A stretch of DNA of 64,000 nt from Escherichia phage vB_EcoM_CUA3, in sequence record PP410321; one strand, written 5' to 3'. How positions within the stretch are numbered: position 1 is the stretch's first letter; each line of letters starts with the position of its first letter. Both the position numbers and the translations under genes were made by a program. Below are positions 11,200 to 56,356 of this stretch, in pieces. Below the pieces are notes generated by a model. That model had not been told where the DNA came from. It saw nothing but the letters and a program-made list of their open reading frames with translations, and made no database searches.

Positions 11200-11814
11200 T
11201 CAGTAAGAAAGAACTGAAAGATTCCAAATGGTGTAATTATTCCATTTAGGATTTCTCTCAATAGAGTCTACGCGTAGCGTAGTTCCCGCAGGGAACATCA
11301 TCTCATCTTCATCATTAATTAATTGTAAGTTTGCTACACGGGTAGATTCAGGAAATGCGCCTGGGAACTCTTCAGGGGGCGCAGCACATAACATTTTAAA
11401 GATTTCTTCCTGATAATTGTACACAAATGGTGCATCATTAATACAAAAGATATTAAATGTGCCGTAGAAGTTATAAGATGCAAAATTCCTTGCCACGTTG
11501 AAGTCTTTAGAGAAGCTCATCACGCGGTCGAATTCAATTACCGCACCCACACACATTGTGGACTCTAGATACTTTAGGGTCTTTTTAGATATACCGCGAT
11601 AGAGCTTATCAGGCACTACAGAAGTCAGATTCTTACGAATGATTTTGTTCAAAGTTTCTTGGATAGAATCCGGTTTATTTTCCATACACTGCCAGAGCGT
11701 GCTCTGTTCTAAATCGGAATACACCTCATCAATTTCTATCTGAGTATTCTCACGGAAATCCTCGCATTTGGCATTGTCGATAAATTCTGCTAATTTATGG
11801 CTTGGGTATAACAT
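11200..11814 (-). CDS. modB: ADP-ribosyltransferase (ModB-like, R-S-E class)
   Basis: 204-aa ORF; LYRGIS (Arg), SFS (Ser-x-Ser) and acidic EDE motif in ART order; paralog of the adjacent ORF; T4 order dda-srd-modB-modA. Confidence 0.65.
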   Translation of the reverse strand: MLYPSHKLAEFIDNAKCEDFRENTQIEIDEVYSDLEQSTLWQCMENKPDSIQETLNKIIRKNLTSVVPDKLYRGISKKTLKYLESTMCVGAVIEFDRVMSFSKDFNVARNFASYNFYGTFNIFCINDAPFVYNYQEEIFKMLCAAPPEEFPGAFPESTRVANLQLINDEDEMMFPAGTTLRVDSIERNPKWNNYTIWNLSVLSY

Positions 11815-11868
11815 ATTATTCTCCTCAGTTGACAGAAAGATAGTAACATAAGCATCCTTGCCTGTAAA

Positions 11869-12438
11869 CTAAAAATCCAACATTTTTAAATGAATTGTTT
11901 TGTACTCGATTTCGTATGGGTCCCTTTTGATAGTTTCGATTTCCACAATCTCGAACCGTGATAGACTGGAGACCATAAACTCACATTCAGTTTCAACCAT
12001 ATCATAAAGGTCTATGCGAGTTTCATCTATTTCAAGTTCATCTACGTTCCCTGCAAGAACAAGGTCAATAGCGTGGTTGTAGTAGTCGAAAATGAAGGGC
12101 GCATTCCTGAGACTTAAAATGGTTTTTGTTCCATATTCCCATGCCCCTGCAAACTGACGAGCCTGAGAGTATTGTGTACTAAAAGAAGTAACCCGGCCAG
12201 GAGACCACTGACACCCTACAGAAAGAACTTCAAGTTGCTCAAGTTCTCTGGGGGTAATCCCACGATAAAGCTCTACCGGAACCACTGAAGTAACATGCTT
12301 ACGAACCAGTTTGTCAAGGTCGTAATGGAAGTTAGGGTCTTTTTTGGCGTCCAGACATTTCTCTAACAATGCCTGTTCAGATTTTGAAAATTTGGAATTG
12401 ATTCGGTCTTGATAAAGACATTTTTGTTCGATGTTCAT
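11869..12438 (-). CDS. modA: ADP-ribosyltransferase (ModA-like, R-S-E class)
   Basis: 189-aa ORF; VTSVVPVELYRGIT and SFSTQ motifs; N-terminal half paralogous to 11200..11814. Confidence 0.65.
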   Translation of the reverse strand: MNIEQKCLYQDRINSKFSKSEQALLEKCLDAKKDPNFHYDLDKLVRKHVTSVVPVELYRGITPRELEQLEVLSVGCQWSPGRVTSFSTQYSQARQFAGAWEYGTKTILSLRNAPFIFDYYNHAIDLVLAGNVDELEIDETRIDLYDMVETECEFMVSSLSRFEIVEIETIKRDPYEIEYKTIHLKMLDF

Positions 12439-52373: not shown

Positions 52374-52653
52374 TATCTACCTTCATTAGTTTCGCGTATC
52401 GTTCTCCGATAGCCCGACCTTCAATCGAGCAAGACTCTATTGTATTGCAATTTGAAATTTTCCAAGAAGCAGTTACATAAGCCCAGTAGTCTTCGGAGGC
52501 CTTTACACTAGGTTTACTCATTTGCGCATAAACTGGCATCGCACTACTAGCAAAGGCATCCATCAATTTAGGATCGGTTTTGTTTGCTAGTGAAGATGTC
52601 GGGCTTAAACATCCAATCATAAGGATACAAGCCACTGTACGGAAAATACCCAT
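52360..52653 (-). CDS. putative secreted protein/lipoprotein
   Basis: 97-aa ORF; signal peptide MGIFRTVACILMIGC. Confidence 0.4.
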   Translation of the reverse strand: MGIFRTVACILMIGCLSPTSSLANKTDPKLMDAFASSAMPVYAQMSKPSVKASEDYWAYVTASWKISNCNTIESCSIEGRAIGERYAKLMKVDNEIQ

Positions 52654-52746
52654 ACAAAAGTCCTTTGTTATTTTATACGAATTTGCCTTTCGGCCTTAAC
52701 CGATAGCGATTACCAAAAGCTAAAGCTCTACGGTTAGTATTACTAT

Positions 52747-53025
52747 TTATAGCTTTTTAAGCTTACGACAATACGAATAGAACACGTCGTTAAAATTATA
52801 TTCAACCCAATTCCTCTGTATAGGCGAGGTAATGGAAAGCATATAATGGGCTTTAATTAAATCCATTCCATTTTTATTAGGACATTCTTTATTATTAGCA
52901 TTATACGTCGCTGCTACAACTTCTATCTCTCTTTTGTAAGCCGCATCATCCATGATGGGCGAAAGAACAATATAAGAGATGGCCACAGCGAACGCTAGAA
53001 TTAAAATCTTTGAATTTAGGTCCAT
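52747..53025 (-). CDS. hypothetical membrane/secreted protein
   Basis: 92-aa ORF with N-terminal hydrophobic segment. Confidence 0.4.
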   Translation of the reverse strand: MDLNSKILILAFAVAISYIVLSPIMDDAAYKREIEVVAATYNANNKECPNKNGMDLIKAHYMLSITSPIQRNWVEYNFNDVFYSYCRKLKKL

Positions 53026-53032
53026 AGTACCC

Positions 53033-53605
53033 TCAACTCGTTATTTCTATCCAGTGCTTCCTGCACAATGACACGTAAGAATCGTTGCCACCTATAGAAA
53101 CTTGGGCTCCGTCCTTAATTGCGACACCATCTTGGACCCTAGCAGTCATAGTAGCTTTACGGCCGCAATGGCACACACCTTTGTACTCAACGAGTTTATC
53201 TGCCGTAGCGAGTAATTCAGCAGAACCAGGAAACAGTTTACCCTGAAAATCAGTTCTTAGCCCATAGCACATAACTGGAACATTATAATTGTCTACTATC
53301 TTTGCCAGTTGTTTTATCTGTGCAGGTTCTAAGAACTGTGCTTCATCCACAAATACACAGTGGATATCTTTTTGGGATTCAGCCCAACGATAGAACTCGT
53401 ATAGGTCCATATCCGGAGTCACTGCATTAGCCTCTTGACTAATCCCTATACGAGACGAAATGGTATGGCTTGATTCTCTATTGTCTATCGCAGGCTTTAA
53501 AAGGAGCACGCCCATACCACGTTCTTTGTAGTTATGGGCCGCTGTTAGCAATGAAGCGGTCTTACCTGAGTTCATTGCCGCATAATGAAAATAAAGTTGA
53601 GCCAT
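53033..53605 (-). CDS. tk: thymidine kinase
   Basis: 190-aa ORF; P-loop YAAMNSGKT, Walker B VFVDEAQF and C-terminal zinc ribbon CxxC...CxxH typical of type II TK. Confidence 0.85.
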   Translation of the reverse strand: MAQLYFHYAAMNSGKTASLLTAAHNYKERGMGVLLLKPAIDNRESSHTISSRIGISQEANAVTPDMDLYEFYRWAESQKDIHCVFVDEAQFLEPAQIKQLAKIVDNYNVPVMCYGLRTDFQGKLFPGSAELLATADKLVEYKGVCHCGRKATMTARVQDGVAIKDGAQVSIGGNDSYVSLCRKHWIEITS

Positions 53606-53614
53606 ATTACCTTC

Positions 53615-53800
53615 TTAAAGACTATTTACATAAGCAATTAATTCGTTTTCTTTCTCATCAAATCGATTAGCAAATTCTTCCAGATGGTCGGCATCTATCG
53701 GGCCATATTCATCGTAAAAAGCGTTTGCTTCGGCATGTTCATCCAAAAGCTCGTGGATAAGCTCAAACAATTTGTCTTTCTGTTCTTTACTCAAACTCAT
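53615..53800 (-). CDS. hypothetical small acidic protein
   Basis: 61-aa ORF. Confidence 0.35.
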   Translation of the reverse strand: MSLSKEQKDKLFELIHELLDEHAEANAFYDEYGPIDADHLEEFANRFDEKENELIAYVNSL

Positions 53801-54651
53801 TTAGGTTCACCATATCGCACAAATTTAGGATGTTCGCACCCACCAGAATAAAGGCCTTCGCCTTTATGGTTAATGCACCCTTTATTGGAACAGTACCACC
53901 AGTAATCATATTCGCAATTCATTTCATCATTGCATAAAGCTGCGATTACCGGCCATTCACATTTTTCACATTTAGCCGTTTTAAGAATTCTAGCTTGGCT
54001 CATAACCANNNNNNNNNNNNNNNNNNNNNNNNNNNNNNNNNNNNNNNNNNNNNNNNNNNNNNNNNNNNNNNNNNNNNNNNNNNNNNNNNNNNNNNNNNNN
54101 NNNNNNNNNNNNNNNNNNNNNNNNNNNNNNNNNNNNNNNNNNNNNNNNNNNNNNNNNNNNNNNNNNNNNNNNNNNNNNNNNNNNNNNNNNNNNNNNNNNN
54201 NNNNNNNNNNNNNNNNNNNNNNNNNNNNNNNNNNNNNNNNNNNNNNNNNNNNNNNNAATTTAGAAACCTTGTCCCAATCACCGCCAGCAATACCACAACC
54301 TATGCGCGGAATATAAATTCTTGGTTTAAACAAAAGGGTTTCTGCTTGTAGATTTAATTCTATCATACAGTTTACTAAAGCACCGTAATCAAGATTAGGG
54401 CCTGGTTCGTATTGGGTGTATAAATTATAGCANNNNNNNNNNNNNNNNNNNNNNNNNNNNNNNNNNNNNNNNNNNNNNNNNNNNNNNNNNNNNNNNNNNN
54501 NNNNNNNNNNNNNNNNNNNNNNNNNNNNNNNNNNNGCTAATTGACCCGCTACACCTGAACCCATAGTGTGAAAACAATTACACCCATGTGCAATAATATT
54601 ACCTTGGAGAAACAGGGCGACGATATCGCCCTTAATATAATTAATAATCAT
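53797..54651 (-). CDS. macro-domain protein with Cys-rich C-terminal region (two N-masked segments)
   Basis: N-terminal IKGDIVALFLQGNIIAHGCNCFHTMGSGVAGQL resembles the macro-domain ADP-ribose-binding core; C-terminus has 9 Cys (CEKCEW...CNDEMNC...CSNKGC...CEH); continuity across the Ns is unverified. Confidence 0.45.
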   Translation of the reverse strand: MIINYIKGDIVALFLQGNIIAHGCNCFHTMGSGVAGQLXXXXXXXXXXXXXXXXXXXXXXXXXXXXXXXXXXXCYNLYTQYEPGPNLDYGALVNCMIELNLQAETLLFKPRIYIPRIGCGIAGGDWDKVSKXXXXXXXXXXXXXXXXXXXXXXXXXXXXXXXXXXXXXXXXXXXXXXXXXXXXXXXXXXXXXXXXXXXXXXXXXXXXXXXXXXXXVMSQARILKTAKCEKCEWPVIAALCNDEMNCEYDYWWYCSNKGCINHKGEGLYSGGCEHPKFVRYGEPK

Positions 54652-55004
54652 TTAGAGTTTAGCCCTCGATTGTAAGAGTCAACGAGTCTGTCTACCATAG
54701 ACGCGCACATTTCTTTGTACTTTTTATCAGACGGAACACATTCAGTAACGTTTAGACGTTGCTCGTATCTTTTAGAAAGAGTTTTCTCTTTCATTCGGCG
54801 ATGCTCGACGTCGTTCTGCCCATCTTTAAAAGCAGCTGTTATTTTTGAACTGAATTCAATAACACATTCAGTATTACTCGGATGACAATAATCTTTTGCT
54901 GTACGGGTGGCATACTCGACAATTGAATTATTTGTATCATCAACCTGTGACGCTAATACTCCCGGAGCAATCAACATAAGCGCTATAGTCATCTGTTTAA
55001 TCAT
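54648..55004 (-). CDS. putative secreted protein
   Basis: 118-aa ORF; signal peptide MIKQMTIALMLIAPGVLA. Confidence 0.4.
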   Translation of the reverse strand: MIKQMTIALMLIAPGVLASQVDDTNNSIVEYATRTAKDYCHPSNTECVIEFSSKITAAFKDGQNDVEHRRMKEKTLSKRYEQRLNVTECVPSDKKYKEMCASMVDRLVDSYNRGLNSK

Positions 55005-55544
55005 TTAATATACCGCCTCAAACATCTTTTTAGATTTTAGGTAATTGGCCTTTTCTAGAACTTCAGAAGCATATTTACTACCTGCTTTGACATTCCAGCC
55101 CGCATTATAAGAAGCAATCGCTTTTCTCAGGTCACCTTTGTGAACATCAATCCAATAAGACAGTTCAATGTAGGCCCAAGAGGCACTGTTCTGTCGTTTT
55201 TGGACCATACGAATTATTTCTTTGTCTGACATCTTCCAACCTACCTGTTGAACACGACTTCTTAACGTAGGCAAGTAATTTTGGAACATGCCATAAGCAT
55301 GGTGCTTATCTTTATTTAAACCCTGATTAATTCCGGCAGATGATTCCTGCCATAACAATCCGGCCATTATATATCCTAATCCTTTTTGATTAGGGTTTTC
55401 TTTGAACTTTCCCGACTTTTGGTATTGTTCACCGAAAGCATACGCATAATGTAAATTATCGAGTTGTTCATTACTGAAAGTAGGCTCTACGCTATGGGCA
55501 GACATACTAACTGTCAATAGTAAAGTGGCTAATACTTTTTTCAT
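55005..55544 (-). CDS. secreted lytic transglycosylase (SLT domain)
   Basis: 179-aa ORF; signal peptide; WQESSAG (catalytic Glu-Ser), AYGMFQ and YNAGWN in SLT-domain order. Confidence 0.55.
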   Translation of the reverse strand: MKKVLATLLLTVSMSAHSVEPTFSNEQLDNLHYAYAFGEQYQKSGKFKENPNQKGLGYIMAGLLWQESSAGINQGLNKDKHHAYGMFQNYLPTLRSRVQQVGWKMSDKEIIRMVQKRQNSASWAYIELSYWIDVHKGDLRKAIASYNAGWNVKAGSKYASEVLEKANYLKSKKMFEAVY

Positions 55545-55556
55545 GAGACCTCATTA

Positions 55557-56015
55557 TTAAAGATAGATTACTTTCGTGCTGGTTTTACCTTCTAAACGTT
55601 TAGAGTTAACAAATGCCATACGGCATTTTAATGAATATCCTTTATCAGGATGTTTACGGTCTACGGTCATACCCAACCATAAGGTTTTATCGGTAATCTC
55701 GAGACGCAGTGGTCGATACACTTTACCTGGGACAATTTCAGATTCTACATCAGGAAGAGGCTCCTGGATTAAAAATTCATGGATTTCTTTAACATGATTG
55801 TGGAGCTTCTTGAACAAAGAGAAAACATATTTTTCGTCAATTTCACGTTGGATAGCACGGTCCAACAGGTGATTAGAGTACTTAATAAAGAAAGCTGGGA
55901 CACCGCTCTTGACGGCGGCTTTTTTGATGGACGCGTTAAGTTCACGAAATTCGGTTTCGAACTGTCGACGTAATTTGTTGCGGCGGATGAATACTTCTGA
56001 ATTAATTTCTGACAT
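55557..56015 (-). CDS. regB: RegB sequence-specific endoribonuclease
   Basis: 152-aa ORF collinear with T4 RegB (EVFIRRNKLRR...HLLDRAIQREIDE). Confidence 0.8.
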   Translation of the reverse strand: MSEINSEVFIRRNKLRRQFETEFRELNASIKKAAVKSGVPAFFIKYSNHLLDRAIQREIDEKYVFSLFKKLHNHVKEIHEFLIQEPLPDVESEIVPGKVYRPLRLEITDKTLWLGMTVDRKHPDKGYSLKCRMAFVNSKRLEGKTSTKVIYL

Positions 56016-56043
56016 TTTGTAATCTCCTGTAGTTGATAGGTCT

Positions 56044-56072
56044 ATAGTACCACGCCTACAGGAGATGTAAAC
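56044..56072 (-). promoter_or_regulatory. early-type promoter with SD-complementary spacer (regB)
   Basis: minus-sense GTTTAC, 17 nt, TGgTACTAT; spacer ATCTCCTGTAGG pairs with 5'UTR CTACAGGAGAT. Confidence 0.6.
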
Positions 56073-56077
56073 TGCTT

Positions 56078-56356
56078 TTAGTATTTCTCTTCAGGTTGGA
56101 AAACACCACGACAAGCCCACATAGAAGCTTCTTTCAANNNNNNNNNNNNNNNNNNNNNNNNNNNNNNNNNNNNNNNNNNNNNNNNNNNNNNNNNNNNNNN
56201 NNNNNNNNNNNNNNNNNNNNNNNNNNNNNNNNNNNNNNNNNCNTCTTCAAGCGCTTTAAAGATTAATCCCAATCGAACTTCAGCATCTTTGATGGCATTC
56301 ACTTTACCGATTTTATCGTCGGTATGTGGCTTGTAACCTTTGATATCTTCAATCAT
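56078..56356 (-). CDS. hypothetical protein (partly masked)
   Basis: 92-aa ORF. Confidence 0.3.
   Translation of the reverse strand: MIEDIKGYKPHTDDKIGKVNAIKDAEVRLGLIFKALEXXXXXXXXXXXXXXXXXXXXXXXXXXXXXXXXXXXXLKEASMWACRGVFQPEEKY

Follow-up and report, generated by a model that had tools for sequence, protein, structure and literature searches.

The minus strand of the stretch of Escherichia phage vB_EcoM_CUA3 DNA analysed here (record PP410321, 64,000 nucleotides (nt), hereafter the window) carries between positions 53797 and 54651 a frame of 284 codons, and we confirmed that no stop is visible in it. An earlier note on this DNA took the whole frame for one protein in which a macro domain is joined to a Cys-rich part. 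The comparison with related phages argues instead that the locus would be a tightly packed series of small, separately translated early genes of the Dhakavirus type, namely vs, tk.4, (tk.3), a zinc-binding gene, tk.2 and tk, of which tk.4 would encode a macrodomain protein of the AdfM type (anti-DarT factor Macrodomain) and the zinc-binding gene would be independent of it. Taken as a whole, we regard this as the best explanation of the locus and hold it with good confidence.

Unread bases (N) make up 351 of the 855 bases of the 284-amino acid (aa) open reading frame (ORF), and the program that listed the ORFs renders N as X; stops beneath the Ns are therefore invisible. Three pieces of the ORF can be read. 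The first consists of 38 N-terminal residues (MIINYIKG...GVAGQL; the N-terminal residues of the ORF are MIINYIKGDIVALFLQGNIIAHGCNCFHTMGSGVAGQL), the second of 58 internal residues (CYNLYTQYEPG...PRIGCGIAGGDWDKVSK) and the third of 68 Cys-rich C-terminal residues, which have an ATG of their own at the start (MSQARILKTAKCEKCEW...GEPK). The stop of tk.4 in phage JS10 (NC_012741) falls under the longer of the two N runs, of 248 nt (Table 1), and in all eight relatives compared (JS10, dhaeg, CLB_P2, dhabil, fDHCT2, Bp7, P896 and T4) tk.4 closes with its own stop past ...VVDYE(S/P).... Read against these genomes, the 284-aa ORF is an artefact, in which unread bases conceal the tk.4 stop. The caution in the earlier note that two N runs leave the fusion uncertain was well placed, and its single protein gives way to the separate genes that JS10 and seven relatives carry.

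The N runs are best understood from a comparison of the window with JS10 over its length. Between positions 1 and 50000 of both sequences we observed 5.15% mismatches and 3627 Ns with zero indels, the register being perfect even at 49 kb, and a base by base comparison of window positions 52500-56100 gave 115 mismatches in 3250 bases, again with zero indels. The ORFs of the window have the same coordinates as in the JS10 RefSeq record. We counted 93 N runs in the window; the density of mismatches to JS10 is 3.5% far from Ns and rises to 6-7.5% at 100 nt or less from them. As judged by megablast, the region belongs with T4-like phages of the Dhakavirus group (JS98, JS10, dhaeg, CLB_P2), and in dhaeg, CLB_P2 and Bp7 indels relative to JS10 are present at the tk.4 region itself. 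Because a natural genome 5% removed from JS10 would show indels, we read the window as a reference-guided consensus that follows JS10 coordinates and has Ns where reads failed to map to JS10. The 103-nt run coincides with a 12-nt indel and many substitutions that separate JS10 from dhaeg-type alleles, a divergence across which reads of an allele of the dhaeg/fDHCT2 type would not map to JS10. The single-ORF look of the locus would arise from such a consensus leaving N over the tk.4 stop. Since the lengths of the N runs come from JS10, and mirror that reference rather than the real sequence of the sample, it is uninformative that the two ends of the 284-aa ORF are in frame with each other; ORFs that cross N runs elsewhere in the window are likewise unreliable and may be several genes merged.

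Table 1. Genes, unread runs and readable parts at the tk.4 locus, with other features of the window mentioned in the text
Feature	Position	Strand	Remarks
vs.1 homologue	55005-55544		
vs (valyl-tRNA synthetase modifier)	54648..55004	-	Upstream neighbour; stop overlaps tk.4 ATG (ATGA)
tk.4 (adfM-type macro-domain gene)	54184..54651	-	JS10 coordinates and annotation; 155 aa in JS10; stop and C-terminus masked in window
tk.4, readable part 1	54536-54651	-	Codons 1-38
N run (103 nt)	54433-54535		Over variable loop of Tk.4, approximately residues 39-73
tk.4, readable part 2	54257-54432	-	58 codons with NLYTQ and PRIGCGIAGG loop
N run (248 nt)	54009-54256		Covers tk.4 3' end with stop and whole tk.3 position
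tk.4 stop in JS10	54184-54186	-	Under the 248-nt N run
tk.3 (70 aa, DUF7202)	54000..54212	-	JS10 annotation; frame differs from tk.4; unreadable in window
Zinc-binding gene in JS10 (unnamed, 70 aa)	53797..54009	-	Start 6 nt upstream of window ATG, masked in window
Phage_zn_bind gene in window, 68 aa	53797..54003	-	ATG 54003-54001, stop 53797-53799
Zinc gene 3' half, divergent stretch	53770-53940		
tk.2 (DUF7438)	53615..53800	-	Downstream neighbour; ATG overlaps zinc gene stop (ATGA)
modA and modB	11200-12438		JS10 coordinates

The genes lying between vs and tk.2 differ among the relatives. JS10 has tk.4, tk.3 and an unnamed Cys-rich gene there, and dhaeg and P896 have the same three; in CLB_P2 and dhabil tk.3 is missing, and tk.4 runs 23 nt into the Cys-rich gene, which is in another frame; Bp7 and fDHCT2 have tk.3 (unannotated in fDHCT2) without the Cys-rich gene, and T4 likewise has tk.4 and tk.3 without it. 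As the zinc gene is missing in Bp7, fDHCT2 and T4, and tk.3 in CLB_P2 and dhabil, the two small genes are independent cassettes, and by the same comparison the zinc gene and tk.4 appear as genes that are gained and lost independently. The Tk.3 protein of JS10 and dhaeg matches Pfam PF23832 (DUF7202) with an expect value (E) of 2.5e-37, and every relative that carries tk.3 has it at 94-95% identity to JS10, while bases of the consensus were still called at 80% identity. The lack of calls over so conserved a gene suggests that the sequenced phage probably resembles CLB_P2 and dhabil in having no tk.3, or has something else in its place. Taking all eight phages together, the vs-tk stretch is variable, with tk.3, the zinc gene and tk.1 occurring in differing combinations.

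We then consider the macro-domain part. The window pieces of tk.4 are 93-99% identical in DNA to the tk.4 genes of fDHCT2 and dhaeg, fDHCT2 (159 aa) being closest with 96.6% and 98.9% for the two pieces. The earlier note had seen a resemblance of the N-terminus to the macro-domain core and had proposed a search with a hidden Markov model for it. This search succeeded with the full-length proteins of dhaeg and JS10, which reached 33.7 and 32.8 bits with Pfam Macro (PF01661), above the gathering threshold of 22 bits, while the residues readable in the window gave 13.7 bits when taken as a fragment and 18.4 bits when the masked codons were filled with X, falling short because of the masking. Furthermore, an AlphaFold2 model of a 159-aa relative, which is identical to the window at 92 of the 96 readable residues, has a predicted local distance difference test score (pLDDT) of 94.5 and a predicted template modelling score of 0.89 and displays the three-layer alpha/beta/alpha macro fold, so that the resemblance seen in the note holds. 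With this model Foldseek returned a probability of 1.00 to TARG1, BT1257, Poa1p, DarG, SCO6735 and viral macrodomains; the best solved fold neighbours are TARG1 (E 1e-9, template modelling (TM) score 0.72-0.82), BT1257, Poa1p (TM 0.74-0.77), the DarG proteins of Thermus aquaticus and Mycobacterium tuberculosis, and SCO6735, at TM scores of approximately 0.7-0.8. On the strength of the model, Tk.4 is placed in the ALC1/TARG1-like class of macrodomains. The protein is assigned in PHROGs to phrog_335, labelled "phosphatase", and by tblastn the family occurs in 2,773 phage records, including phages of Vibrio, Pseudomonas and Acinetobacter outside the T4-like group.

To place the catalytic residues we aligned Tk.4 with TARG1 and DarG, whose sequences were verified against the PDB chains beforehand. 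In MAFFT and in two profile alignments, the catalytic Lys of these proteins (TARG1 K84, DarG K80) aligns to a Gln of Tk.4, Q84, which is invariant in 118 of 118 members of the Tk.4 family, as are H22, N25, C26, N80, Y82, P119 and W130. The conserved ribose-contacting Asn, N25, and the Gly residues of the phosphate-binding loops, G31/G33 and G122/G124/G127/G128, vary little or not at all in the family and are all readable in the window, where H22 and Q84 can be read as well. Through the common alignment to TARG1 K84 and DarG K80, Q84 of Tk.4 corresponds to Gln85 of SCO6735, an ALC1-like macrodomain protein of the bacterium Streptomyces coelicolor; this Gln has itself been equated with the catalytic lysines of TARG1 and DarG (PMC9411070). 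In that protein the Q85A and Q85E changes abolish activity and N27S leaves almost none; SCO6735 has a higher turnover than DarG or TARG1 in cleaving thymidine-linked ADP-ribose on DNA, and it also rescues E. coli from DarT (PMC9411070). We considered whether the change from Lys to Gln marks an inactive reader, and rejected this, as SCO6735 uses the same Gln and is highly active. Besides the Gln at the K80/K84 position, Tk.4 shares with SCO6735 (PDB 5e3b) the Asn (N27 in SCO6735, N25 in Tk.4), the His (H24 and H22, respectively) and the PRIGCGLAGG loop, the Tk.4 form of which, PRIGCG(I/L)AGG, aligns to SCO6735 G126/G128; the sequence match has an E of 1e-7 alone and 1e-15 with a profile, and the fold matches also. 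SCO6735 is unlike Tk.4 in its longer mobile loop with Lys89 and Lys94, and in being bacterial and DNA-damage-inducible and not a phage counter-defence gene. Among PDB sequences, BT1257 of Bacteroides thetaiotaomicron matches Tk.4 best (PDB 2afc/2fg1; E 2e-10 alone, 1e-19 with a profile); it has Gln at the catalytic position and an identical PRIGCGLAGG loop and differs in being a bacterial, structural-genomics entry. By analogy, the chemistry of Tk.4 most likely follows SCO6735 and not DarG: Q84, held by N25, would place the distal ribose for a water-mediated cleavage.

DarG (PDB 5m3i, 5m31) is like Tk.4 in its fold class and in the presumed substrate, thymidine modified by DarT2 in single-stranded DNA, and unlike it in having its catalytic Lys in an FPTK motif and a C-terminal DarT-binding domain. 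The NCBIfam DarG model (NF048014) gave Tk.4 27.3 bits against a cut-off of 250, covering only profile positions 1-142 of 338, and the PADLOC DarG model gave 27.5 bits. We therefore rejected membership of the DarG family, the score being far below the cut-off and Tk.4 being a bare macrodomain of 155-159 aa without the catalytic Lys and without the C-terminal domain.

The window gene has a well supported orthologue in T4. Over 155 aa and without gaps, the Tk.4 proteins of dhaeg and T4 are 57% identical (E 5e-69), and in T4 the gene likewise lies between vs and tk.3; by these two features of sequence and gene order the orthology of window tk.4 to T4 tk.4 is well supported. With the dhaeg and fDHCT2 proteins as proxies for the window, the two share a size of 155-159 aa, a single domain and the invariant H-G-C-N-C, NLYTQ and PRIG-G motifs; they differ in genus (Tequatrovirus for T4, Dhakavirus here), in the variable loop residues 39-77 and in the zinc gene, which does not adjoin tk.4 in T4. 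In a transposon library of T4 (HIDEN-SEQ) grown on E. coli expressing DarTG2, tk.4 was the sole gene depleted, and a clean tk.4 knockout was sensitive to DarTG2, whereupon the protein was named AdfM (bioRxiv 10.1101/2025.11.20.689424; November 2025). The same preprint terms the removal of ADP-ribose from DNA by T4 Tk.4 only likely, and likens the protein to DarG of M. tuberculosis (bioRxiv 10.1101/2025.11.20.689424). One of the two roles that the earlier note had offered for the macro domain, that of countering a host ADP-ribosylating defence, agrees with this knockout phenotype, and by analogy with T4 the window Tk.4 probably counters such a defence. We propose that it would bind the ADP-ribose which host DarT2 places on thymidines of single-stranded phage DNA (TNTC motifs) and, as the T4 orthologue and the biochemistry of SCO6735 together suggest, would hydrolyse the thymidine-ADP-ribose bond and let replication continue.

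The name AdfM has been given independently by two groups to two macrodomain lineages. The second bearer is PhiKZ gp104, for which removal of DarT2-placed ADP-ribose was observed in vitro (2026 Cell Reports, PMC13309987). We translated gp104 according to the methods of that paper and found it 35% identical to M. tuberculosis DarG, with the FPTK Lys motif, and only marginally similar to Tk.4 (BLAST E 0.005-0.03). Since gp104 is a DarG-like protein of the Lys type and Tk.4 is of the Gln type, the two AdfM proteins are distinct macrodomain lineages.

Several points weigh against the assignment of Tk.4 as a Gln-type eraser of DarT2 marks. Approximately 40% of tk.4 is masked in the window, and its intactness in the sequenced phage is assumed; the support from T4 Tk.4 is genetic and comes from a preprint, the DarTG2 phenotype being established for T4 alone; and the in-vitro de-ADP-ribosylation of DNA by AdfM concerns PhiKZ gp104, not Tk.4. 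Val25 of SCO6735, a position described by its authors as family-specific (Val or Ile), is an invariant Gly23, adjoining H22, in Tk.4. The role of residue 25 in SCO6735 was proposed via its backbone, and the chemistry may survive Gly23; in view of this residue we regard Tk.4 as Gln-type but not as an orthologue of SCO6735. Finally, a close neighbour of Tk.4, yeast Poa1p, is an ADP-ribose-1''-phosphate phosphatase, which points to a possible small-molecule substrate. Tk.4 could accordingly be seen as mainly a small-molecule enzyme that clears metabolites derived from NAD, an ADP-ribose-1''-phosphate phosphatase or O-acetyl-ADP-ribose deacetylase like Poa1p, which is among its best matches in sequence (E 5e-10) as well as in fold and shares the (A/I)H(G/S)CNC motif, H22 falling on the His of the crystallised H23A form of Poa1p (PDB entry titles). 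Databases also label the family 'phosphatase' (GenBank: 'phosphatase / A1pp motif'), but this label derives from the motif and not from an assay, the one known phenotype of the T4 orthologue is a specific loss of DarTG2 resistance, and SCO6735, with the same set of Gln, Asn and His, is a hydrolase of thymidine-linked ADP-ribose on DNA. We consider a predominantly metabolic role unlikely.

It may also be asked whether Tk.4 neutralises DarT2 less as an enzyme than as a protein that binds either the toxin or what it produces, in the manner of a stoichiometric inhibitor or a reader. Although catalytically dead, the Q85A form of SCO6735 remains an efficient inhibitor of DarT through interaction, stronger than dead DarG or TARG1 (PMC9411070), and would be a precedent for such a mode of action. 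On the other hand, SCO6735 needs Q85 for cleavage of thymidine-linked ADP-ribose in vitro and rescues E. coli from DarT, and the invariance of H22, N25, Q84 and the Gly loops over 118 diverse homologues argues for conserved catalysis, so that a role confined chiefly to binding has, in our estimate, a low probability. As an addition to hydrolysis by Tk.4, direct binding and inhibition of DarT2 may contribute to the effect, as the SCO6735 precedent suggests.

The other role offered in the earlier note was regulation of the phage's own ADP-ribosylation; in such a reading Tk.4 would reverse the marks which Alt, ModA and ModB place on host proteins or RNA. The modA and modB genes are indeed present in the same window, as the note had observed (Table 1). 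However, Alt, ModA and ModB modify arginine, and ADP-ribosylated arginine is the substrate of hydrolases of the ARH type; we know of no macrodomain of the ALC1/TARG1 class that acts on it, and by this general knowledge the arginine marks do not match the substrates of the class. Genes of the Tk.4 type extend to Vibrio, Pseudomonas and Acinetobacter phages beyond the T4-like group, and no genetic data favour the removal of Mod marks. With nothing in support of a link to ModA/ModB, we consider this role very improbable, and the removal of DarT2 marks remains our preferred function for Tk.4.

The Cys-rich part of the frame is a gene in its own right. Its product scores 98.6 bits with Pfam PF23895 (Phage_zn_bind; cut-off 27, E 2.1e-28) across all 69 positions of the profile and belongs to phrog_2306, and the gene was found in 748 phage records. 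The earlier note had described a putative zinc module with nine Cys; the C-terminus is Cys-rich as it said, but counting from the translation we found seven Cys and two His. The ligand positions invariant in the family are only C12, C15, C38, C43 and H46, in the pattern CxxC ... DYWWYCSNKxCxNH, and all of these are present in the window protein together with D33, Y37 and N40, whereas C24, C30, C56 and H58 are confined to the T-even branch. The AlphaFold2 model of the zinc protein has a pLDDT of 87.7, and neither a significant fold match nor a sequence match in PDB was obtained for it. As the conserved positions suggest, this small, independent protein would probably have one conserved zinc site (CxxC...CxxxxCxxH). 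Nothing specific connects it with the macrodomain. Of the stretches with called bases, the 3' half of the gene departs most from JS10 (80% identity per 100 nt; Table 1), and the window protein has I44, L51, Y52 and G55, which were unseen in the relatives examined, where S, F, H and Y/D, respectively, stand at these positions; either a divergent allele or faulty mapping could account for this.

We searched for a macro-zinc fusion from both sides. Among the 120 best homologues of Tk.4 (95-199 aa) none was fused to the zinc module, each having PF01661 or nothing. An exhaustive HMMER search of 1.84 billion proteins with the zinc module gave 124 cluster representatives, nearly all of 61-165 aa, and none of these contained a macro domain, the ten longest having been checked with Pfam; nor did any of 96 relatives from a profile search with the zinc protein, all of which were PF23895. 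On three unrelated phage or prophage contigs no macro gene was found near the zinc gene. With no uninterrupted joint frame in the eight related phages or in any database homologue, the fusion was rejected. That the masked stretch of the sequenced phage holds a rearrangement truly joining the two is extremely unlikely, for although both visible parts share one frame in JS10 coordinates and the sequence beneath the 248-nt run probably departs from JS10, that frame sharing follows a run length taken from the reference, tk.4 ends in its own stop in every relative examined, the two genes overlap out of frame in the phages without tk.3, the 120 + 124 + 96 homologues contain no fusion, and the visible zinc gene retains its own ATG in the TGGTTATGA context of the preceding gene's stop.

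A few longer proteins carry, besides Phage_zn_bind, PF02697, a weakly matching HTH_31 or a Lar_restr_allev match that is likewise weak (25.8 bits, below the cut-off of 28.6), which hints at a regulatory or anti-restriction context for these proteins. In a prophage of Brevibacillus borstelensis a Phage_zn_bind gene lies between a Mu-F-like head morphogenesis gene and a scaffold gene, a late-gene context, in contrast to the early-gene context of the T-even zinc gene.

The macrodomain itself is already known, having been annotated for years in the JS10 reference ("A1pp phosphatase motif"), and its T4 orthologue has a counter-defence phenotype. What the present analysis adds is that the Tk.4/AdfM family has Gln, not Lys, at the catalytic position and resembles SCO6735 rather than DarG, an assignment that predicts Q84A and N25A as mutants for testing the mechanism. 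More tentatively, phages may have recruited two anti-DarT2 macrodomain lineages, a Lys type represented by PhiKZ gp104 and a Gln type, likened to SCO6735 and BT1257 and spread over approximately 2,770 phage records, represented by T4 Tk.4 and the window gene, and the tk-vs stretch may be a small hypervariable counter-defence islet; we put this combined proposal forward as a possibility on the doubtful side. If it is true, the PF23895 zinc protein and tk.3/DUF7202 would be independent anti-defence factors of the tk-vs islet.

Two observations concern the genes upstream of tk.4. The vs gene, which lies directly upstream, showed the strongest depletion of any T4 gene in minimal versus rich medium in the HIDEN-SEQ preprint (bioRxiv 10.1101/2025.11.20.689424). 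The vs.1 homologue is named 'endoribonuclease RegB' in the dhaeg record, whereas JS10 has it as vs.1 hypothetical protein; the dhaeg label was apparently copied from the adjoining regB.

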